Source of the DNA: Raillietiella orientalis
Lineage: Eukaryota
Direction: 5' to 3'
Assembly: GCA_036172245.1 (NCBI GenBank)
Contig: JAYWIR010000001.1
Coordinates: 10,292,001-10,356,000 of the forward strand
DNA length: 64,000 bases
Shown: one piece after another, positions 5,264 to 61,248 of the stretch
How positions within the stretch are numbered: the stretch's first letter is position 1
Layout: each line of letters begins with the position of its first letter
Made by a program: the position numbers and the translations under genes
The notes under the pieces: model-generated
Databases searched by the model: none
What the model was told of the DNA's origin: nothing
What the model saw: the letters and a program-made list of their open reading frames with translations, nothing else

Positions 5264-5723
5264 ATGCCATTTCTACGCGACCACGATGAGGACGTTATGA
5301 AATTGCTGTACCTTGTCATCGTGGTCAACTCTTGGCGCCTGGACAGAAATTGGGAAGCCTCGTCCTTTCAGCTAAGCTCCCGGGTAGTCAAGACGAAGTA
5401 CGGTCAACTGCGAGGACTGATACACACCCATGAGCACAAGGCATTGCCCCCCGTGGAGGTATTCCTCGGCATCCCCTTTGCGTCGCCTCCGCTGGGTAGC
5501 CTGCGCTTCATGCCCCCCGTCACGGCGTCAAAGTGGAGCGGGATCAAGATCGCCGACAAATTCAGCTCCGTGTGCCCCCAGAAGTACCCCGACATTCGAA
5601 ACTTGAGCCAATCCCTCAAGCACATGCCTCTGGGAAGGTACAGGTTTCTGAAAAAACTTGTCCCTCATCTGGCGAACCAGAGCGAAGACTGCCTGTACCT
5701 GAACCTCTATGCTCCAGCAAGTG
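5264..5723 (+). CDS. Nlg: Neuroligin coding exon 1 (N-terminus of the cholinesterase-like domain)
   Basis: In-frame ATGs at 5264 (MPFLRD...) and 5297 (MKLLYLVIVV, signal-peptide-like); the true start is uncertain. Encodes VKTKYGQLRG...FLGIPFASPPLGSLRFMPP...VCPQ...NQSEDCLYLNLYAPAS. Donor G|GTAAGT at 5723/5724, phase 1. Confidence 0.93.
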
Positions 5724-6049
5724 GTAAGTCTCCACCACCACATCTTCGAAGGGGGAAGAGGGGAGGCGGGAAAACGCGAGTAATGAATGTGAAGGGGAGG
5801 GGGGGGATGTGCATGACGCTCGCCTCGTTGCGTTCCACGATTTTTCGAATCCCTCCCCGAATCATGGGGGAGCGGACCGTCCGCAGGAGTAACCGTAGGA
5901 GATTTCGAGAAAGATGCCCCTTCCCTTTCGTGCAGTTTTCGCTCCCACATCTTCAAGTAAATTCGCACGATGATGAGAGAGGGCTCCATTCTTCTTTTGA
6001 ATGCTTGAGCAGTACCTTCCGGTTCGCAATAATCGGCAACTCCCCCTGA

Positions 6050-6590
6050 CATGTGGGAGTCAGGTCAATGGGCGATGGATACCCTGCGCATCGAAGCGGA
6101 CATTGTGACCGTCGGGTATGAGGTCAGCCAAAACACTTCGTCGGTCTCTATCGAGATGACGAGGTCCGTGGACCTGGAGAAGCCTTTCGTTGGGGAGAGA
6201 GAGCTGTTCCGGGTCGCGGGCGAGCAATCGCCTCTGGGTAGCGAGCTGGTGCTCCAGACCGTCCGAAGTTCAGTGAGCCCCGTGGGTGCGAGGACCAGGT
6301 CGACGGAACGTGACCTCTACCTGCCAGATCCCGTCTCTCGGAACACCGCTGGCGTTCGCCAGCTAAGCTTGGCACATTGGTGAAGGTGGAGCTTCTGGGA
6401 GAGTTCCATGAGGCGCAGTTGACCACGTCACGTGAAGGTCAGGGGTAGATGCTTTGCGGGATGACACGTACGAACACTTTTCGTCTCCAGTTGTTGGCCT
6501 CTGTAGCAAAATAGTCCTTCAGCAAAGATGCGAGAAAGAATTGGAGTAGTACTCATCTCAGATGTTGACGATAACATCGGCGGCCCGTGC
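6050..6590 (-). mobile_element. Decayed LINE AP-endonuclease fragment
   Basis: Minus-strand reading VIVNI*...RGQLRLMELSQKLHL...TP...RSRSVDLVL...W...GDC resembles the APE motifs IVNIY, RG..L, S.IDL.L and SDH; contains stops. Confidence 0.33.
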
Positions 6591-9197
6591 AGAAGCAATC
6601 GTTTGACGGCGAAAATTGGAATTTTCAGCTCCCGCTGTTATCGATCGGGTGGTGGTCGCCTGGAATGAATCCGAGTGATGACGGGCATCTGGGCATTTGT
6701 GAAGATGAAGCCATGATGGATGCGACGGTGTCCCGATTGCTGCAAACAGCAGTCGTGCTGGGACGGCGGAACGACCTGCTGGAAAAATGGTCGACTGCTT
6801 CTCTTGAACTAGCATCCATCATGCACCGTGCCGCTTCTTTGATAAATGCACATCTCGGTATCTGTCCTCAGATGAGATTCACTCCCTTTCGCTGGGATGA
6901 CCATGCGCTTCTTGAAAAACGACTTTCCTGCCAGCAACCGCATTCGATTCACATTCCAGCACGCTGCGACGCAGACTCCATTTGTCTGTGCCAGATTATT
7001 CTTTCGAGTTTCCAAGAGTGGACGGCGTAGAGGTAAGGAGAACGGGGTGTCCGGCATTTCCCACGTTGAGGCCATTCTTTACGGAGCCCTTGGAAAGTTA
7101 CCTCCTGCTTTCGTGCTGCTGGAAAGCTAGGCTTCCTTCTTTCGGCTTCCCATCTGCTGAGCAACTAGTAGTCGTGCGGCGAGGAAAGTGAAAAGGAATT
7201 CCTCATGCTGCCCAAGGGTTACGTTTTTCATCAGCTTCCTTTCGTTGGTGGACTTTGGTTCGGTCGGGAATGCAGGATAAGTCACTCATCTCGGAGTGCA
7301 TCTCAAGATTCTAGGAAAGCATCCTTCTTTGTCCGTGGCGTCGGTGTGAGGAACAGCAAAGTGCGCTCTCTTGGAAGTCACTCGACCTGTTTGCCCAAGA
7401 GCGCCATTACGCGTGCTCATTGTGCGCAGGCCGTGTTCCGCTTTTCTTTTCTGGACTGTTCCAGACCAACGCGCACGAAAGCTCATCCAAAGAAAACTCG
7501 AAAATTTCACCCTGCAGTCGTTGGCGCCTCCAAGATTCTTCGAACCCCGTTGGCGGTATCTTAGATCTGCGCAAAAAACGCGACGAATATGTGAGCCAAA
7601 GAACGCGATTCTCAGAATCGGGAGGACGCGCACGCACTCCCATATGCACCGAGGACCAGAAACATCGCTAGGAAGACGGACTCATCTTTCATGCTGCTTC
7701 CTTGTTTGCGATGAGCTCTATTTTGGAAAGGGAATGGAGATGTAGTGCATTTTTTTCCTCGTCTATTTATTTGCTCGCCACAATCCTTTGTTTTCAATGC
7801 ATGTAATGGCAGCCAGTCAGTGCTCCTCATCAGCACATGCTTCGGAAGGTAGAAACCGTATTCGGCCTTTTCGTACACATCGTACACACTCCCCCTTGCA
7901 TGTACAACTGTGCACGTGCAATCATCCGGGCTGTCCTTATACGTTTCGGTCATTTCTTTTCTGCGAAGAGTGCGCAAATACGGGAAAGCAGTCTGGAGCA
8001 CTCCTCGTTCCCCAAGAAATCCGTCCGGGAGCGCAGATGATTCCGTTGCCGCCTGAAGGACCTCTGTTTTCGTATCATTTCAACTTAGTAAAAATCTTTA
8101 AGATGCACGTCGCATTTAACAAATGGCTCCGAAATGTTTGTCTCTGCTGGTTGACGACCCCATATATCACATCAAATGATTTCGGAGCTTTTCCATTGAT
8201 TTTTTTTCGGCACCATCATAAAAGTTTCCTATTCATTTGTGCAGCTCTTCCCGAATTACTTCCACTACAAATAAAAAATTTTACTCGGGACTCCGACGCA
8301 GTCTTGCTTTGACTCCAGTGCCGTCTAGCTCTTTCTTCAGCTAACGATCAATTTGTTCACAAGTCTGTAAACGTTCCTGCAGGATATTCAAACTAGAGTT
8401 ATCTTTCTCTGACCGATCTTCGCGAGCTCTTGTAGAATCTGGAGCGCGATTTTTTTTTTTCTTTCTTTCCTTGAGCAGAATGATTCGGACGGCCAGAGGA
8501 AATTCGTGATTTCGTTTCCGTGCACCGAATTCGATCAGACGAATACTTCTGGTCCCTGATCTCGAATCTGGCCAGCTGCGGAATCTCCAACGCGCTGACC
8601 CTCCCTGTGAGCTGATGCTCACGCTGGTTTCTGCATCGGCCGCAAGTTGCACGTTGCACTCATTTTTCCAAGCACTCAGCTGACATCTCAAAAAGGGCGA
8701 ACCCAGCGCTAGTTGAGAGACGGATGGATTCCGCAGTGGATGGATTCAGGCATTTCCGATCCACTGCTGAAGTACGAAAGGGTTGCGAGTTCTCAGTGAG
8801 CGATAGTCGATAATTCGTTGGGACGGCACATTCGGAGAAAGACATGCCCTGGATGCAGGCTGCATCCGTGCAAAGGATACCTTCGTCACCTGACGACGTG
8901 AGGGAAGGCTACCCGTCATCAAAGATCAAGTGAGTTTCTTTGTGGAAACGCGCATCTCTCATACGAAAATGCCGATACCGACACGGTCGTCATCTTGTTG
9001 GTTTCTTCTAACATCACTTTATAAGTAGCTCAACATGATTGCACAGGAGGAAGACGCAGATTGCAGTGCACTGTTTGGAACGTGCTCTTTGCCAACCGGA
9101 ATTCTGGTTGCTGCTTGGTGCTGTCAGCATCATTTTTCGAAATCTCAAAAACCAAGAGCCGTTCTCTTTTTCTCGTTCTTCTCGTGCGGGTTCTCAG

Positions 9198-9206
9198 TTG
9201 AACAAG
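9198..9206 (+). CDS. Candidate 9-nt cassette micro-exon (adds V-E-Q)
   Basis: Pyrimidine tract 9162-9195, then CAG|TTGAACAAG|GTAAGT. Perfect consensus donor, phase 1-1, frame-preserving, with TGC at -13 to -11. Confidence 0.5.
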
Positions 9207-10049
9207 GTAAGTGAAATCTCTCAGTGGAACGAGAAGCGATTAATTCAAGATCAAGAAGCAGTCCATTGGATATCAGAACTGAGGAGCGCTCTCTCTAACA
9301 TGGAAGCTTTTTGCTTTTCCTAACCGAAAATTCAAAATTTTCCAGAATGTTCGCTTGGTTTCATGCTGCTTGGCTTCATAGCGCCCATGAAATTTCATTG
9401 GAAGACGAGCGATTTAGCAATCTGACATGTTTTCTTCAGTTTTTTTTTTTTTTTTCTCACATTGAGGAAAAGAACCCATTTAATGCGAAACCTGAAAATT
9501 AGGGCGTGTCCTCGTTCGTTGAAGATGATATTTTGGGAATTCTTTTTGGTGCTGTTTCGAGTGGATAATACGTACTTCTTTAATGGTCATTAACTTGCTG
9601 TGGCAGTCACCAGCCTCAGCTCCGTAATCCACATGGCAAAGCGACTTCGTCTTTGCGAGAACCGCAGCTGTGGATGGGTTCAGCTTTCTACGTCAAGAAA
9701 GTCTGTTGTTCGGGTGGAATGAGCCACACGTGGTCTTTTGAGTTTTCAGGCCCGAAGGTTTCTTTTCTTTTCTGTTTTTTTCCGTGAAGGAAAGTTTCTC
9801 ATGTCCTTTTTTTGTTTGTTTTCAGTTATCTGCAGCACGCAATTTCGTCACGCACACACGAAAGCAATGAAAGTCTTTAGATTTCGAGACTGCAGCATCA
9901 GTACGGAGTTCACTTAGTCGATGCCGGTATCAGACATGGCATGCTTGTATCAAAATTTGAGCAATCTTAAAGAGCAAAAAGCTGGACCGTTTTCTTTTTT
10001 TACCGACCCTGAAACATTGAATAAGTAGGGCTGTGTATGGCACTGGTCG

Positions 10050-10400
10050 AGCATGGGGACAATCTGAAGGGTTCAATACTCGAAATATACTTTAATAAAT
10101 GGAAGGCTGGTAGATTATTGATACGGTTAATATCATTATCCATATCTCGAAAACCAAGCCCATCAAGGTGCTCCTTGCTCCTCTACCGTGTCCACTCGCT
10201 TGCTCGCAGTGTACGAGAGAACTCCGCTCTCGTTCAACTTTATTCTATGGAAGATGTGGAAATGGGATTTCAGCCGGGTAGTCACCTCTCAGAAGCAAGT
10301 AATGTCAGTGAGTCTCACAACTGAGGTCAATCCTATTCTCGTTATTCATGAAAGGAAGCCCTGCTTCTAGTTGGTTGCGTTATCGCCCTCTTAGGTCCAT
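10050..10400 (+). mobile_element. Decayed LINE (CR1/L2/Jockey-like) AP-endonuclease N-terminal fragment
   Basis: Across frameshifts, in the expected order: FNTRNIL/NK (cf. FNARSI.NK), NIIIHISKTKP (cf. DII.ISETK), RSVR (cf. R.DR), LLVGCV/YRP (cf. LVGCVYRPP). Confidence 0.4.
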
Positions 10401-10684
10401 TTCTGAAGGCTGAAGTACGCAAACATGAGATGTCCTTCAGCTCAATCTTGTTGTGAAAATACAAGAGTACCTTAAGAAACCGAGGCTGACATCGCGTACT
10501 TTTGAGGGAATTTTGTTAAAGTTCCGACGCATTCATTTGTGACCAACCAAACGTCCATTGATTTAAAAAAAAAAAAAAATCCGCTTTGGAGTGTTTTGGT
10601 AGAGGTCACAACGAGATAAACAACGTTTTCTGAAAACGAGATGAGCAGTCGGTTTCGCTTGCATTCCCGTTCTTTTCTTGGCAG

Positions 10685-10720
10685 GTGTTTCTCAAGATCA
10701 TCTGACGGAAGCTGCAAGCA
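10685..10720 (+). CDS. Candidate 36-nt cassette exon (GVSQDHLTEAAS)
   Basis: TTCCCGTTCTTTTCTTGGCAG acceptor, 36 stop-free nt in phase 1-1, donor A|GTAATT. Confidence 0.33.
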
Positions 10721-12978
10721 GTAATTTCCTGTAAGCAATGGTTTTCCACTGTTTACAGGAGGGCAAAGAAAGAGTTGCTGCGCCGCACCGGGAGCCTCAG
10801 TGAAAGACCTCCCATTGAGTTGGGTTGTATAGAGTCCGATCCAATAGATCAAAGCAGTCTAAAAGATATGCATGGGTTGTGAAATACTCAGAGACAGCCC
10901 TCGGGAATCCAATAATTTTGAACGCTGCTTTGATCATCCCCGTATACACATGGAAGTTCGTAAGTACACGTTTTCGCTCTTGCAATTTCTGGCATTACAA
11001 GAAAACTGTATCCGCATATTTCTGATTTTTGATCCATCCTGAGGAAGCGGATTCGGTCGATCGGCCTTCCTTTGATCGAACAAAACGACAAGGCCCTGGG
11101 ACCTCTGGAGGCTCCTTGCTAATTGCAAGTGCGCGTAGCGGTTTCTCCAGTGAAGCAGGATAAAGGCGTAAATCGATAAGGGCCGAAATGAAAGAACCAT
11201 GTAATGCCCTCTCTAGTGCATTTTTTTCCCCTCGATACAGAGATGCAAACGGAAAGCATCCTGGAAACGGCTTGAAAGATCGAGCCTTACAGCTGAGCCA
11301 CGAAGGCTGAGGGCTTGCGAATGCCGCGTGGCAGCTCCCAATTCCCACCGTCTCCGGTCACGCCGGGGCGTTTGTTTTATAAAAGTGGTCTGCTTCAAGT
11401 CGAGCCCTGTGGTTCGAGGGCGTATTTCTGACAGCAGTTCTCTCTTGAAAGAGATTCCGTCTTCGTGAGATTGAATATCTCTGATCATCTCAGAGCACGA
11501 GCGTGCGGAAGTCCCTCAAGTTAGCAACTACTTACTCTCAAGGGCTCGCCGGAGTTGTCGAAGAACGGTGCTTTTCGATGATTCCGTTTCACACGCTGCT
11601 CAGGACACCTAATCGAACGTCCCGAGAGAACAAATCACTGGGCTTTCCGTGAGATTTCTCCGAGAAGACTTTCGCATGATCAGCTGGCGCGACTTTTCGT
11701 CCTGAGTGCATCTTGTTGGAAGCGATAAATTTGGGTGCGGCCCAAGTTCCGGTTTCGTCGGTCACGATAGGTGTTGCTTTCCTCGTGCGTACGTTTATCT
11801 CAAGCTGCATCCTTGGAGTTTCCTCGACTGAGAATAATTGCCGAATGATTGATTTCACGACAGGCACTTCAAGGGAAAATGCAGAGGGCCCCCGTACAAT
11901 GCGGAGGATGCGTTCCACGTCCGTGTTATACGAGCCCTCTGGGTTGGGCATCAATAATACGACAATACAATACTTGCGATTTCAATATAAAACAAGAAGA
12001 AAAGCATTGAAAGTGCTCACTATTTCACCTAAAGTAGAAAGAAGGGTTTGGTGGAATCCACTTCAACTCTGCCGTTCTTCTTGCCGAAAAATCTATCTTC
12101 TTGCGCAGTTTCATTCACCAAAGATGAGGATGAATTCAACCTACTCGAACCCTCTGGAACCTGCACCCTATCCAAAAATTGGTAGTCATCCTCCGCATCA
12201 TCGTACGGCACGGATTCACCGCGTTATACGAAGGCTCGGCTCGCCGCTTTTTGGGGTGGCATTGCACTGGGGTATGCGTGTTCATATGATCCCCTGTATG
12301 CGAGCGCTCCGTGGTGTGCGTGTGCACAACTCGCTTGGCCTTTTATTTTATTTTTTTTCAAGACAAAAGGAAAAGCAACATGCTTACGTCATGGGCCTGC
12401 ATTTTTTTTTTCTTTTTTTTTCCCAAATAACAGCTGAGCCAACGCCGTGCCAGGAAATGAAGCGTCATCGCGTTGTAGGAAGGCGCTCGCAATTTTTCCT
12501 TCGCGTTAGACGATTCCGCGCTGTATCGGGTCCTCTGTGCCTGTCGAGCTCTCCTGGCTACAGAGCTAGTTTGACGCGAAGAAATCGCGTTGCACGGCGA
12601 AGGAAAGGGGAGCACTCGAGCTAGGGATACAAGTTCGGGAGGGCATTTTGTTTTTTCCCCTGTACACGTACCCCGTCCTCGAATTGGCACCACCGTCTTC
12701 CCTCTAATTTCGTCACGAAAATCGATGACCATTGCAAGCACTTGCAGGGCTGGAATTTTTTCTTTTATTGTCCTTCCCGTGCCTGCTCGTTTGCATTTCG
12801 CTCGTCATAAAAGGAGGAAGGGATTGCGCGTGCACGTAATGGCGGGACTTGCGAGCGGCGGGGTTAGCTGCGCCCGCGGTCCGAGACCCCGATCTGGGGG
12901 CGAGGCGGGAATGGGGTTGGAAGCCTCCTGCTCCCCATTCTGCAGTTCTGCGCATTCACCATGTTTCATGTGTTGCAG

Positions 12979-13137
12979 TTGGAACGCGGGAATCCGAACA
13001 CAGGAAGCATCCAGTGTTAATTTTCATTCACGGTGAATCTTACGAGTGGAATTCTGGGAATCCATACGATGCCTCCGTGCTCTCCAGCTTTTCTTCTGTG
13101 GTTGTCATCACGATTAATTATCGTCTCGGAGCATTTG
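12979..13137 (+). CDS. Nlg: Neuroligin coding exon 2
   Basis: TGTTGCAG acceptor; encodes (V)GTRESEHRKHPVLIFIHGESYEWNSGNPYDASVLSSFSSVVVITINYRLGAF; donor G|GTAAAA; phase 1-1. Confidence 0.95.
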
Positions 13138-16100
13138 GTAAAAACACACACACGCAAATACACACGCAAAAAAAAAAATCAAAAACAAAAAAAAGGAAGC
13201 GTGGTTCTTCGAATGAATTCCTGTTATTTATTCCCTCCGAAAATGCCGATGCATCTCAAGAAAACGCGATTTTCAAGCCCTCCCCTTATCTTGATTTCTT
13301 GAAATCCCGGGAACATAAAGTAAATCTATGTCGATTGAATTGATCTTCATGTATGTACCTACTGATGGGCTTGACAGTGAGGCAATGATTTATGAACTCT
13401 CCCTCTCGGCCTTTGTATGCTACAGCGAACGAAGAACGGCGAACCGTGGTCTGCTTCGGTTGATGCCTGACTCGAGTAGGCTTCCGACTTGGGAGAAGTT
13501 CGGACGTTCCCCCGACCCTAGCAACTGCGTCGCGCTGCACACATCCGTCATCGAGATTAAGAAACTCCCAGACAAGTGTCCGTGTGTTCTCGGACATTAG
13601 AAAGTCACCAGCCACGCATATGCTGCTGCGAATGTCCCCTCTATCTGCACCGCATCCGAGTCCCTCGATTGCAGAATTCAGATGAAAGACAAGATCTGGA
13701 ACGTGGATGGGAGTGCAGATTTTTTTTTGGTAGGGAGCTCGAAAAACCCTTTACCCTACTGGGTAGCATCACAAAGTTCCTTCCGGTGCAAGGAAGACTC
13801 GCTTTTCGTCCTTGCCTGCGTTCCCGAAATCCTTGAGAAATTTTCGATTTTGGCAACCCTGAAAAGATTCGAGACATTTCTGCGTTTCCTTGAACAAGGG
13901 AATGCCGGGTCAAATTCGACACTCTGAGGAGCGCGCTCGGAACCACGTGGCCGCAGGCGGAACGTGTGCGCGATTACGTGCGAAGATCAACTTCGGTGCC
14001 TTGCCGCGTCCCAGAATCGAAATGGTACTTGTCTTCAGGGCAGTACAGATCTCCAAAGTATCTTTCATGATTGCAAGCATCTCCTAAATCTGCACTGACA
14101 TCGTGACTCGTACTCGTAGAGTCAGCATATTTCCTTGCGCTGATTTATCCCCTTCTGGTACACTTCAGAGGTCACCAACTTTTCGAAGCTTCTGTGGAGA
14201 TGCTTCAGGGCTTCTTTGTACCCATTTTTTCGAATGCCTCAGGCAGAATTTCGGAATAGTCATTAATGAGGAAAACAAAACAACTTATAGAAGTGATTGC
14301 TGCTGCTGACTTTTCTAACATGTTGGTTTCGACTTTGTCCAGTTTTTCCTTGCTACGATCACTTGTGTGCCTCTGAGTACCTCTTTTTGAAGTCTCACGC
14401 TCTTCTCGCCTCTCAGAATGTGAGCTGAAGATCACACGAGGAACAAACGTTTCTGTTGCTGGTCACTTGATCTGTCAGAGTTGACTCCTTTCCAAATGGA
14501 GCAGAATTCCTGGACACAAATCGAACACTTCCTCGTCGCGCTCATGCAGGCACACTCGAAACTTCTCGAACGATCTGGTATCGAAAAAAAGCGACTCCCA
14601 AATTGCCTTCGTTTCGTCCTCGTCCTTTTCTTTCCGATTTGGCTGCGCTTCCTGAAACGGAAGTGCTCTTTCTCGAAGTATCCCCCCATGCAGAAGTCCT
14701 CCGGGATAGAGATGCATGTGTTGCTTTATAGCTTTCACACTTTCGCATCACGGCAGGGATGCCAGATGCAAAACACCCATCCCGAAAAGTGTTTCCGCGA
14801 ATTTCGTTTGAAAGTTTCGTTTTCAACGTGCAAGGAACGGGAACTGGCGAGGGGAAACGTTTTGAAGAACTTGCACAGATGCACCTCAAGCATTCCTTAC
14901 CCGGAAGCTACCGCGCCTGCTGCCAGTCTCGCAGTCACGGAAACTTCGAGATTGGAGAAGCGCTCCTTAGGTTGCACGCCCTGAACCCGGCTTAAGGACA
15001 ATCCTTGATAAGTTTTCCTTCCTTCCTATTTATCACATCCCGTTTGCTGCTGGAGGGTTCGCATCAGTTTATTTCGGTCAGCCACTTACACAGTTCGGGT
15101 TGTTCCTGCGGAGTGTTTCTCTCGGGCACCCCGGAGTTTCGGCTGAGCCTTCTTCACTTGCTCGTTTGCTATCCCGGGATTTCGACATCTATTTCTGCAG
15201 TTCTCAGGGATGGAAGACAACTGCTGATCCTCCCTTCATTCTCGTTCCAAAAGAAAAGCGCACGTGTAAGTGCCATCCTCCTTCATGGTTTCAGGTTCGT
15301 TAGCGATGCCGCCACAGGGCTGCTGGAATGCGGCATTTGGGACAGTGGGAGATTGTCGCAACGAAACTCTGGGTCAGAGGTTGTTTAGGCAGGAACAAGT
15401 CTTGAGACGGTTTGTTGTCACCGGTTGTTGTTTGGTTCAACTGATATATTTGGGTAATCTATATGAAATTGCTTGCGATCTGAAGTTCTGCGAGAGTGGA
15501 CTCTGAAATCCAATCTCAAAGTAAAGACGTCTAATCCAGGTTACTTCGTCGCAGATTCAACGGACAACGGGCAGCACGTTTACGCTTCACGAACTGCAAA
15601 ACGACGGGTGTAACAAAATTCTAAACCACCTAGAGGTCGATAGGCTTCCTCCCTTCATTCATGTGGAACCAAGGGAAACGGAAAATCTCTCCACGAGAGT
15701 TTGTTCTTCAGTGCTAGGTCCATAATCGAGTCAGGGAGTCCAGCTCCCATTGCACGAAAATGAGTCGCGTCTCAAGAAAGTCGTAAGGATCGCATTCTCA
15801 GGGTACCTGCAGATACCCTGCGGCAACGATAGGAAACGGAAGGAGCTAAGGCTCGATAATGCACTTCCATCGGCCAGGAAATTCTCCCTTTAGGAGTCTC
15901 GGAATGCCGCCTGTAGCTGGCCAGCATGTCATCTCGCATGCTGCGTTGTGATGAAAAACTTGCAATTTAGCAGGAGCTCGTTTTTCTGGGTGCCCGAAGG
16001 GAAGCTTAGTTCATCGTGGATAGGCGTTTTCTTTTCGCGTCATAGATATGCAGAATTCATTCGAGATACTAGTGACAGGATGCTGAAAACAAGGATCGTG

Positions 16101-25400: not shown

Positions 25401-28169
25401 GGCCACTTGCTCCGTTTGGAGTTTTCTCAGTCACAAGCTGGACCAGCTCTGATATGGGCCCTCAGAAACGGGCTATTGTTTTTGTAACGGACGGATGCAA
25501 TATCATCACCAAGAAATTTAATCTTTGCAACGCTGAGCTTCCCTGACTAAAGTGCGTTTCCTGAATGCTGCAAGCAGCACTTTACAAAGCAGTAAAGCAG
25601 GGTGCGTTGGTATTCCCATTTGCAAGTGCACTGAAGTAGATTTCGGCAGTCGAAAAAGCACTCTTTGCCGGGGTTGCGTCAAGTGAATCTCTGCTGATTG
25701 TCTTTGGAATCAACAGCCTCTCGGAAAGAGATCCAGCAAATTCTAGGATGGACTGGAACCCGACCACTGCGTACGAAAGGAGCTTTCCGTGGATTCAGCA
25801 ACGCATTGAAGACGCTCAGAAGAGTGCTCCAGATTCGTTCATCAGGAATGGAGCTAGCGTCGAAGATCCGGTGCATCAGGAGAACGTGATGGGAATAGGT
25901 GTTACTGCCCAAAACTAAGGATGCCGAATTTGACTCAGTACCGTTGTTTTCCTCAGAAATCCACAAGAAGCACACTGCCATTCCGAGGTGAAGTTTAGAC
26001 TTCTTTTTGGGGGTAAATTCGACCTTGCATGCAGAAGGCTCCAAGAATCTTCACGAAACCTCGCAGTAAACTTTCCGCAGAAGCTGAAGCCGAACTCTTA
26101 CGAACACGAGAAAGCATCGTAAACATCCGAGACGATTTACAAAATCTTGAACACCCTTTTTCAATGGAGCTAGGAAGCCTTGAAAACCTTATCCCATTTT
26201 ACTCCTTCGGAAGGAAGATCATATTATTTTCGGTGCAACGAAACTGATTGATTAAATAGTGTTTGGTGTGCCATTAAGCTACTTGGGAGGATGTCTTTAA
26301 TGACTCAAGCTGTTTAAATCTAAGTTATGACAACTGCAAACCATTTAATCAACCGAAATTTCTCTAACAGTGCACTTAATAATTAGCAGGGCTCTGAAAC
26401 CTATGAGCCGTAGCCGATAGCTGGAAAATAGAAAAGCCATTGCAATGAAGATTCTGATCTTGAGAGTAAACTCTTCAGCATGGGATAGATTAAGCAACTT
26501 TAAGGGACCAGGGTTAACGATAAGTCCTTCAGTGATATTAAGGGGAAATCATATCATGACGATAATGGAAAGAAGGAATAAATCAAAACTGGCCGTTTTC
26601 AGCGAAACGAGTAGATGGCAGTCACGAGAAGTAGGTTTTCAGTGTTTCTCAACGACACTCGATACATTACATTGGATTAGTGATAGGCGTTCCCTTATGC
26701 AAAGTGAAGCTGAGAAAAGCAAGGAAAAGGATAAACAACACTTCACCGGTGTGACCAGCATGAACATGATGCAAAATGGGATCCTACAAAATGGATAATG
26801 CCAAGGATGCTAAGGATGGAGGTGGACAAACCATTATTTTTTCGGTTCTCAGATTTTAAAAAATAAGGCCATTCGTTAGTCATGTAGCTCAGATTGAAGG
26901 AACAAAGCCTTCATCTGAATTCTGAGATGGGTTCGTATGGCAATCCATTGCCATACCCACTGCAGCACAATCACCTTAGAAATTATTTCTTCATTTGCAA
27001 TTCTCATTCTGGAGCTGCATCACAAAGCAGGACTCTTGAAGATAGGGAAAGATGGAGCAGCCCGTCCGAAAGGTCGAGTCTTGTCTGTCTTGTCAGCAAT
27101 GCTGAAAACGGCCCTCGCTGTGTCGCGTGAAACCCCCACGAAGTCAAAAGCAGCAGACTTCAATTCCTCACTGCAAACTTTGATGCGAGTCTGAAGTGTG
27201 AGCCAAAAAAAACAAAAAAACAAAAACATTGCGAGTCCACTCTATTTACACGATTACAAATGGAGCTGAATTTTACTTTACTCGGATCCTTGTAATTCGA
27301 TCAGACAAGAACGACCAGATCTCCAAAGTGGTCGCGAAAATTCTCAGATCATGCCTGAGAATTCTGGCTATCGAATTCTTGGACACTTAGTACGAGGCTA
27401 ACGAAAGAACAACTCAGGTTCTTCATTAGTGAAAGAAGAGCCAGTTCACCGCCTTGTGAATCATCTTGCTCGACAAATCGCAATGCGGGACCATTAGTGC
27501 GTATCCCCTTATCCCTATTTTCCAGAGTCCGGTGAGTGAAATGAGAAACGATTAACAAGGTCTCCATGTCTAATCTTGCATTGCAAGTAATCGCCGTGGC
27601 AGCTTATTCCAGAGAAAACTCATCATTCTGTCCAGTTATTTTGAGTGATCTCTTTATTCTCTTTAATCTCTTTATTCTCTCAAATTGCTCTCTGCGAAAT
27701 TTATCCATTCTTAGGGACGTGGGGGAGTGAAATCAATCTTTGCTCGTCCACACACATTTACTCTTTTATTTAGTGAATGAGAGGAAAGCACGAAGCATTC
27801 ACTTTTTCATTTCTTCATCTGAAAAGGTTGTCTCCGCAATCATCAGTGTTTCGCCTTTATGACGTCACTCCCCCTTAATGAAACTGTCCGGAGTCTCAGA
27901 AACATTGCCAGTTGTATACCAGAATTTTTCCGTTATCCAGCGACAGACACGGAGTATGCAAAACCGAATTCGCTCAAGGGAGAAAAATCCTGTTGATTTT
28001 TTGCAATCTCAAAACTGAGGGATTCCATGTTTAGTGTGAGGACAGCCTCTCCAAACTCTGTACTGTCAGGAGCATGCGGTAACTGACCAAGGCGGACTAA
28101 CTGTTGCTGATGTGACACACAGAATCAACAAGGAAACTAAGAACAGCTCCGAAAAGGAAGATTTGTGAT

Positions 28170-29826: not shown

Positions 29827-30024
29827 GATTTTTGAATATCAACAGGGATGGAGAAGAAAGCTCACCAACTAATTTCGGCCTCATGGACCAGATTGCTGCA
29901 CTTTATTGGGTTAAAGAGAACATCGAAATTTTCGGTGGAGACGCTGACAATGTGACGATTATGGGCCATGGCACGGGGGCAGCCTGTGTAGACTTCCTAA
30001 TGAAGTCACCGGCAATTATTCCAG
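29827..30024 (+). CDS. Nlg: Neuroligin coding exon 3 (nucleophile-elbow region, GHGTG)
   Basis: TTCCAG acceptor; encodes (G)FLNINRDGEESSPTNFGLMDQIAALYWVKENIEIFGGDADNVTIMGHGTGAACVDFLMKSPAIIP; donor G|GTAATG; phase 1-1. Confidence 0.95.
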
Positions 30025-46441: not shown

Positions 46442-47088
46442 GATTTCTGTTTAAACGAGCAATTCTGATGAGCGGCTCTTCCTACGCACCGTGGGCATTG
46501 GTGAAAAACCCATACGAGATGGCTAACCGCCTCTGTAATGACCTTCAGTGCTTGAAACCCTTCGAGAACACGATAAACGTAGGATGCTTGAAAGAAAAAC
46601 CTATCAAACATCTGATCAAAGCAATGGGAGATTCAAATGCCTACACGTACTCCTTTGGACCCAGCGCTGATGATGTGATAATCTCTCAAGATGCTGCCAA
46701 AAGTGATGATGACGTCAACCAAAACGCATACAGCACGTACGACGTGATGTATGGTTCGACCACAGCGGATGCTGCCCACATGTTCTCATCTAATGATATC
46801 GCTCTCGGCTTCGATGTTTTCAGGAAAAGGCAGATTTTTCAAGATTTCATCACCAGCTGCTACAGCTACCATCAGAACGAAATATTCGCCACAATCATAA
46901 ACGAATATACCACCTGGGAAAGCTCTAAATGGCACCCAATCAGTGTCAGGGAAGAAACACTTGATGCTTTAACTGATGGGATGTTTTCATCTCCCGTAGT
47001 GCGTTTTGGTGACATCCATTCTAGTTTAAACCCGAAGTCATTCTTTTATGTGTTCGAATACCAGTCCACATTCGAGGACTACTCTCAG
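46442..47088 (+). CDS. Nlg: Neuroligin coding exon 4
   Basis: TTTTGTTTCGCAG acceptor; encodes (G)FLFKRAILMSGSSYAPWALV...YHQNEIFATIINEYTTWE...FYVFEYQSTFEDYSQ; donor CAG|GTAAGT; phase 1-0. Confidence 0.95.
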
Positions 47089-61096: not shown

Positions 61097-61248
61097 AGAT
61101 TAGGTTGTGTCCACGGTGAGGAGCTGTCCTATGTGTTTGGCACTCCGCTTCTGACTAACGGAGAAGACCACAGTAGGAACTTCACCCGTGCAGAGATGAT
61201 GCTCTCCGAAACAGTCATGTCAATGTGGGCGAACTTTGCCAGATACGG
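61097..61248 (+). CDS. Nlg: Neuroligin coding exon 5 (absent from the ORF track)
   Basis: TTCCTAG acceptor; hand translation RLGCVHGEELSYVFGTPLLTNGEDHSRNFTRAEMMLSETVMSMWANFARYG; donor GG|GTAAGA; phase 0-2. Confidence 0.93.

Follow-up and report, generated by a model that had tools for sequence, protein, structure and literature searches.

Does the first intron of a neuroligin gene hide a coding exon of only nine nucleotides (nt)? The question is raised by a stretch of 64,000 nt from Raillietiella orientalis (GenBank assembly GCA_036172245.1, contig JAYWIR010000001.1, positions 10,292,001 to 10,356,000 of the forward strand), called the window here and numbered from its first letter. In intron 1 of the neuroligin gene on its + strand, the 9 nt TTGAACAAG stand between the signals of a 3' and a 5' splice site, in the part of the gene that corresponds to alternative splice site A of vertebrate neuroligins. 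Judged from its sequence, I read this element tentatively as a real, probably neuron-regulated, alternatively spliced micro-exon of an arthropod neuroligin. The chance that this is right falls just short of even, and the candidate is a well-founded prediction rather than a demonstrated exon.

The candidate micro-exon and its place in the protein

Intron 1 is 7,255 nt long and lies in phase 1 between exons 1 and 2 (Table 1). Exon 1 ends at 5723 with ...CCAGCAAGTG, followed by the donor GTAAGT in the context GTG/GTAAGT (a slash marks the boundary of exon and intron), and its terminal AGTG leaves one base of the next codon. Exon 2 begins at 12979 with TTGGAACGCG, after ...TGTTGCAG, and its acceptor context is TTGCAG. 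Between the two, the string AGGTAAGT occurs only once in the whole of intron 1, as the donor of the candidate. The candidate and exon 2 both begin with TTG after CAG, a likeness that, by eye, ends there; an origin of the candidate by duplication of the exon 2 acceptor was set aside for this reason.

The DNA upstream of the candidate has the architecture of an acceptor. The last AG before the candidate's own is at 9157-9158, and from 9158 to 9195 there follows an A-free run of 38 nt, 79% of it pyrimidine. Because there is no A from 9158 through the tract, any branch-point A would have to lie at or before 9157; the A of the nearest branch-like word, CTCAA, is at 9147, ~50 nt upstream of the acceptor. 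The last 60 nt before the candidate exon hold six UCUC/CUCU words.

With a length of 9 nt, the candidate lies within the size range of micro-exons (3-27 nt, a multiple of 3) and leaves the reading frame open. Scripted translation of exons 1 and 2 joined directly gives ...LYAPAS-V-GTRE..., and of the exons joined through the candidate ...LYAPAS-VEQ-V-GTRE..., in both cases without a stop. Inclusion would thus add Val-Glu-Gln and regenerate the Val codon that is split by the intron.

Where in a neuroligin would these three residues fall? In PDB neuroligin-1 chains, the match of exon 1 ends and that of exon 2 (from its residue 10 on) begins at residues 119/130 in 5oj6, 120/131 in 3biw, 133/144 in 3b3q, and 118/149 in 3vkf. 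The interval between the two matches is therefore 10 residues in the first three structures and 30 in 3vkf. According to the available text of Oku et al. (2020, PMC7486126), which refers to 3vkf for how A1 is folded, this insert is 20 residues long. The 20 extra residues of 3vkf equal this length, and A1 therefore falls in the loop that intron 1 interrupts. In honeybee NLG3, too, an exon junction falls at site A, as described in the accessible part of Biswas et al. (2008, PMC2570956).

The candidate was first picked out from the letters of the sequence, and most of what the original prediction said of it can be read again in the DNA. Its bases and coordinates for the candidate, the signals and the flanking exons are all correct; so are the UGC at -13 and the AG-free tract at 9159-9195; and the translation bears out the frame-keeping insert of V-E-Q between LYAPAS and VGTRE. 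Its placement of the candidate at the position of site A holds at the level of the loop, by the intervals in the PDB chains and the published length of A1.

Rarity of the signal pair

Intron 1 contains 701 pairs of AG...GT spaced 3-30 nt apart, 225 of them in frame and without a stop, and among these the candidate ranks first. Its signals stand comparison with those of the five homology-supported exons of the same gene: the donor agrees with the consensus at 9 of 9 positions, against 5-9 for those exons, and the acceptor has a pyrimidine content of 0.70 and an AG-free zone of 37 nt, against 0.55-0.70 and 22-40 nt at exons 2-5.

A pair counted as a strict match if its donor agreed with MAG/GTRAGT at 9 of 9 positions and its acceptor was YAG, with pyrimidines making up 70% or more of -23..-4 and with an AG-free zone of 20 nt or longer. 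The candidate is the sole strict match on both strands of the 64-kb window. When intron 1 was shuffled with its dinucleotides preserved (n=2000), an equally strict match arose in frame in 3 of the shuffles and in any frame in 7. As control DNA I used both strands of 80 metagenome loci (900,004 bases), which yielded one strict and 29 loose matches; some of these loci are redundant, L001-L005 apparently representing one species, and L070-L080, which look like bacterial esterases, serve as control DNA only. If the 29 loose matches of the loci are pooled with 5 from the rest of the window, only 1 of these 34 controls has, like the candidate, a UGC as well as four or more UCUC words. For such a signal pair to turn up in intron 1 by chance, I estimate a probability of roughly 0.3-3%.

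The only strict control match (L033, 6475-6500, + strand) is a 26-nt AG...GT pair with a donor of 9/9, a UGC and five UCUC words. It lies ~400 nt upstream of the exon 1 homologue of its locus and may belong to a real small upstream exon.

The loop in relatives

The closest relatives that I could reach are proteins of at most 69% identity to exon 1, whether longer proteins or those of near its length were searched, and the 80 metagenome loci, of at most 66%. Among 440 fetched proteins, the loop could be delimited in 168, with a length of 6-50 residues; because homologues differ this widely, three more residues should be tolerable. The position of intron 1 is itself old, because a phase-1 donor, G/GTAAG or G/GTGAG, recurs at the same codon in many arthropod homologues.

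Isoforms of arthropod neuroligins also vary at this very junction. Among the gene models in the databases, 5 of 26 arthropod isoform pairs differ there. The NLG3 isoforms X1 and X2 of the bee Lasioglossum baleicum (P0198/P0199) differ only by a strongly basic cassette of 13 residues, which sits exactly between ...APTQ and AGARD..., that is, at the homologue of the 5723/12979 junction. The cassette is absent from the loops of 21 other cluster representatives and of 39 further cluster members. In beetles, Zophobas morio and two Diorhabda species have isoforms that differ by a single Ala at the junction, and in the spider Parasteatoda the older of two annotation releases has an extra Asn-Phe there. 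All these differences in neuroligin-3-type proteins fall at the same junction as the candidate, but none is three residues long or resembles V-E-Q.

The charge of the bee cassette recalls the vertebrate A1 insert, and the one-Ala differences of the beetles look like tandem acceptors. The protein pairs of the three beetles and the spider are P0131/P0129, P0159/P0009, P0158/P0151, and P0015/P0005.

Weighing the alternatives

The candidate may instead be a pseudo-exon: a common (TTCTC)n-like intronic tract that ends in CAG and by chance has GTAAGT 9 nt further on, and that is ignored or used as noise. I regard this as a strong contender, with a probability somewhat below one half, and it draws on a number of observations that weigh against the micro-exon. 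The acceptor half alone is not rare, because A-free tracts of at least 30 nt are common in the window (20 on its two strands, 5 of them followed by AG), and GTAAGT occurs three times in the stretch of intron 1, where 1.8 are expected, one of the three being the donor of exon 1. The strict cut-offs were chosen post hoc, with the candidate already known, so the true chance level is somewhat above the computed figures; if a donor of 8/9 or better is admitted, an in-frame match appears in 41 of the 2000 shuffles. The 100 nt before the acceptor (9098-9197) contain neither YTNAY nor CTAAY, the nearest CTAAY being at 9008. At least one YTNAY is present at each of the four homology-supported acceptors, and the word is absent from 27% of random 100-nt windows; its absence here is a real but modest point. 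The candidate also lacks a strong branch-point word of the kind found in flies (CUAAY). In the relatives, an exon-like word was found in none of the 80 metagenome loci with four regular expressions built around the 9-nt word, and 153,178 nt of homologous intron, taken downstream of the exon 1 homologues in 42 loci, gave one loose, unrelated candidate (L033). A blastn comparison of intron 1 with the 80 loci found no nucleotide similarity and no conserved intronic island. No loop among the 168 arthropod neuroligin models contains the tripeptide [VIL][ED]Q; the homologue loops inspected carry no extra insert beyond the isoform differences described above; and none of 120 short protein fragments spans the loop. 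This negative result is weakened because automatic annotation tends to miss exons of 9 nt or less. Finally, exons of 9 nt need special help in order to be recognised, a textbook point also made in the available text of bioRxiv 2024.09.17.613571. What chance explains poorly is the full combination, which is rare in the shuffles and in 900 kb of control DNA and is found nowhere else in the window, with a UCUC...UGC layout that is seldom matched even among loose controls. The candidate, moreover, keeps the frame, and it lies in a loop and at a junction that are alternatively spliced in vertebrates and in some arthropods.

Could the exon be real and yet not specific to neurons? It might be constitutive in this species, or every tissue might include it at a low level with no need of Srrm234. 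Both of its splice sites score level with those of the constitutive exons of the gene, and loop length varies freely among homologues, which would suit such an exon; but the splicing machinery seldom recognises so short an exon unless a dedicated activator helps (a textbook view, again shared by the accessible part of bioRxiv 2024.09.17.613571), and an acceptor with a distant branch region and a UGC is typical, as far as the published descriptions available to me go, of regulated micro-exons and not of constitutive exons. I consider this improbable, and more improbable still that the donor at 9207 belongs to some other transcript, either an alternative first exon with its ATG at 9035 or an unrelated non-coding RNA. 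An open reading frame at 9029-9214 (+), with Met at 9035, does share the neuroligin frame and extends across the 9 nt as far as this perfect donor. However, an open frame of 57 codons is not rare (~6-7% by chance, by my own arithmetic), and the product of such a first exon would be without 142 N-terminal residues of the esterase-like fold and probably would not fold. Pfam found nothing for the surrounding open reading frames and Rfam nothing for the intron, and this reading would leave unexplained why an acceptor-like arrangement immediately precedes the 9 nt.

A recursive-splicing site is ruled out: the exon begins with TTGAAC, and joining it to exon 1 regenerates no 5' splice site. An origin from a repeat or mobile element was also rejected, the candidate region being unique within the window.

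How do real exon and chance compare overall? My inputs, all of them own estimates, were a prior of 1-3% that an intron of this kind holds a neural micro-exon, a share of 5-8% of real micro-exons that would reach the cut-offs, and a chance expectation of 0.2-0.3%. The result was raised for the UGC and UCUC words and lowered for the missing branch-point word and for the lack of a similar exon in homologues. The combined odds of a real exon against chance are close to even.

The neuroligin gene in the window

Judged from its sequence, the gene on the + strand is an arthropod-type neuroligin with very long introns. Exons 1 and 2 match the Pfam family PF00135 (COesterase; E=2.8e-29 and E=6e-14, respectively), and their best PDB matches are the neuroligins NLGN4X, NLGN1, NLGN2, and NLGN3. 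In a protein database search, the best relatives of exon 1 were beetle, spider, and horseshoe-crab neuroligins with 60-69% identity. The translation of exon 3 has ...MGHGTGAAC... at the place of the esterase nucleophile-serine motif, which I take to be G-E-S-A-G in active esterases; this fits a non-catalytic neuroligin, as far as the motif can tell.

Table 1. Features of the neuroligin gene and of the candidate micro-exon, in window positions
Feature	Position	Strand	Basis or remark
Exon 1, coding	5297..5723	+	ATG at 5297; open reading frame, sequence, PF00135, homology, tblastn
Upstream part of intron 1 (would-be intron 1a), 3,474 nt	5724..9197	+	Coordinates; only if the micro-exon is used
CTCAA, nearest branch-point-like word, putative role	9144..9148	+	TNA core, not YTNAY; A at 9147
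AG-free, A-free pyrimidine-rich tract, 37 nt, repeated TTCTC units	9159..9195	+	Sequence
TGC (UGC), -13 from the candidate exon start	9185..9187	+	Sequence; position class of the SRRM3/4/Srrm234 motif
Candidate 3' splice site, CAG	9195..9197	+	Sequence
Candidate 9-nt micro-exon, TTGAACAAG	9198..9206	+	Sequence, frame, signal ranking
Candidate 5' splice site, GTAAGT	9207..9212	+	AAG/GTAAGT, 9/9 consensus
Downstream part of intron 1 (would-be intron 1b), 3,772 nt	9207..12978	+	Coordinates
Exon 2, coding, 159 nt, phase 1 in and out	12979..13137	+	PF00135, tblastn, PDB neuroligin matches
Exon 3	29827..30024	+	Homology-supported
Exon 4	46442..47088	+	Homology-supported
Exon 5	61097..61248	+	Homology-supported; gene continues past the window end

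The introns between the first five coding exons measure 7.3, 16.7, 16.4, and 14.0 kb (5724-61096), and the gene is longer than the window, beyond which its transmembrane and cytoplasmic parts lie. The donor of exon 2 is weak (TTG/GTAAAA, 5/9), and an A/CA-rich low-complexity run follows it directly (13138-13200). Intron 2 holds a second, weaker in-frame candidate of 6 nt, tattttccag/AGTCCG/gtgagt, at 27526-27531 (+). Its donor scores 8/9, its pyrimidine content is 0.85, and its AG-free zone extends over 26 nt; inclusion would place Glu-Ser ahead of the Gly codon that spans the junction of exons 2 and 3.

A possible mechanism and its significance

If the 9 nt are a regulated micro-exon, its splicing, tissue specificity, regulator, and effect on the protein can be pictured as follows. 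An exon of this length would be too short for ordinary cross-exon recognition and would be skipped in most cells, where the UCUC-rich tract may also bind PTB-type repressors. In neurons, Srrm234 with its eMIC domain would bind near the UGC at -13 and assist early spliceosome factors in using the CAG with its pyrimidine tract and remote branch region, while U1 would pair with the near-perfect donor AAG/GTAAGT. Inclusion would place Val-Glu-Gln in the surface loop between the ...LNLYAP and PVLIFIHG strands, which is the loop of vertebrate site A, and would slightly alter the surface offered to extracellular partners. It is possible, though on balance I doubt it, that an arthropod neuroligin thus relies on the Srrm234/eMIC micro-exon machinery, which is ancient in bilaterians, for an insert of three residues in the site A loop.

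What would follow from a real exon? Site A of the neuroligins is much less understood than site B, according to the available text of Oku et al. (PMC7486126), and alternative splicing of invertebrate neuroligins was stated to be unreported until the honeybee study of 2008, the accessible part of which describes, for NLG3, variants by whole-exon skipping only (PMC2570956). I found no report of a micro-exon in an arthropod neuroligin, as judged from titles and the openings of abstracts, supplements not being covered. Neuronal micro-exons as a class, and splicing in the site A loop, are both already known; what the candidate would add is a likely independent arthropod origin of site-A-type regulation, and this surface patch of the neuroligins would have become alternatively spliced on more than one occasion. 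Seen beside the cassette of the bee and the variants of beetles and spider, the exon would mark the loop as a 'tuning knob' to which evolution has returned repeatedly in shaping the neurexin-neuroligin synapse code. Parallel evolution of a synaptic splice code would gain a case that is simple and testable. A real exon would also mean that gene models of synaptic adhesion genes in arthropod genomes with large introns miss regulated coding sequence, and it would provide a minimal insert of three residues with which to probe the function of the loop. Should the candidate instead be a pseudo-exon, it would serve as a warning that pyrimidine-rich tracts, which are common, can give rise to a pair of nearly perfect splice signals.

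Comparison with known systems

The candidate shares with vertebrate site A (A1/A2 of NLGN1-3) the loop that leads from the EDCLYLN(I/L)Y.P strand to the PV..(Y/F)IHG strand, and it is likewise a would-be cassette in an intron that splits this loop. It differs in what it would insert: A1 has 20 residues, is basic and disulfide-bonded, and A2 is acidic, as described in the available text of PMC7486126, whereas V-E-Q has only three residues and no sequence likeness to either. The regulators would differ as well. The same text names Rbfox1-3 as potential regulators of A1, whereas the layout of the candidate points to an activator of the eMIC type; on the + strand GCATG, the Rbfox motif, is absent from 7898 to 9939 and so does not occur within ~700 nt of the candidate. 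Common descent of the candidate and the vertebrate site A exons seems unlikely. As far as the published accounts available to me go, the mini-exons meA and meB of PTPRD/PTP-delta are alike in another way: they too add a few residues to the extracellular part of a synaptic organiser, where they set the choice of partner. PTPRD/PTP-delta, however, has another family and fold than neuroligin, and the analogy is one of function only.

In its signals, the candidate resembles the micro-exons dependent on SRRM3/SRRM4 and on the eMIC domain of Srrm234. In the available text of bioRxiv 2024.09.17.613571, SRRM3/4 micro-exons have a bipartite enhancer, UCU_CUC[N1-50]_UGC, strong 5' splice sites, and a long distance from the AG to the branch point and the pyrimidine tract; a UGC is present in 74-79% of those tested. 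The eMIC-dependent exons of flies, in the accessible part of Torres-Mendez et al. (2022, PMC8797185), combine long AG-free zones and tracts rich in UCUC with a UGC close to the 3' splice site; their 5' splice sites are weak and their CUAAY branch site is strong. The original prediction had taken strong splice sites to be typical of such exons, which is half right: these papers, as far as their available text goes, describe the context of the 3' splice site as weak, and the 5' splice site of the fly exons as weak too. The eMIC-type arrangement of signals that it had proposed is borne out, and the candidate combines a UCUC-rich tract with the UGC and an AG-free zone of 37 nt, in agreement with the published pattern; its strong donor agrees with the mammalian description only. 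Unlike the fly exons, it has no strong branch-point word, and its donor is perfect where theirs are weak; in the donor, it is closer to the mammalian class. Like the members of both classes, it is a very short, in-frame element, 9 nt long, in a gene for synaptic adhesion.

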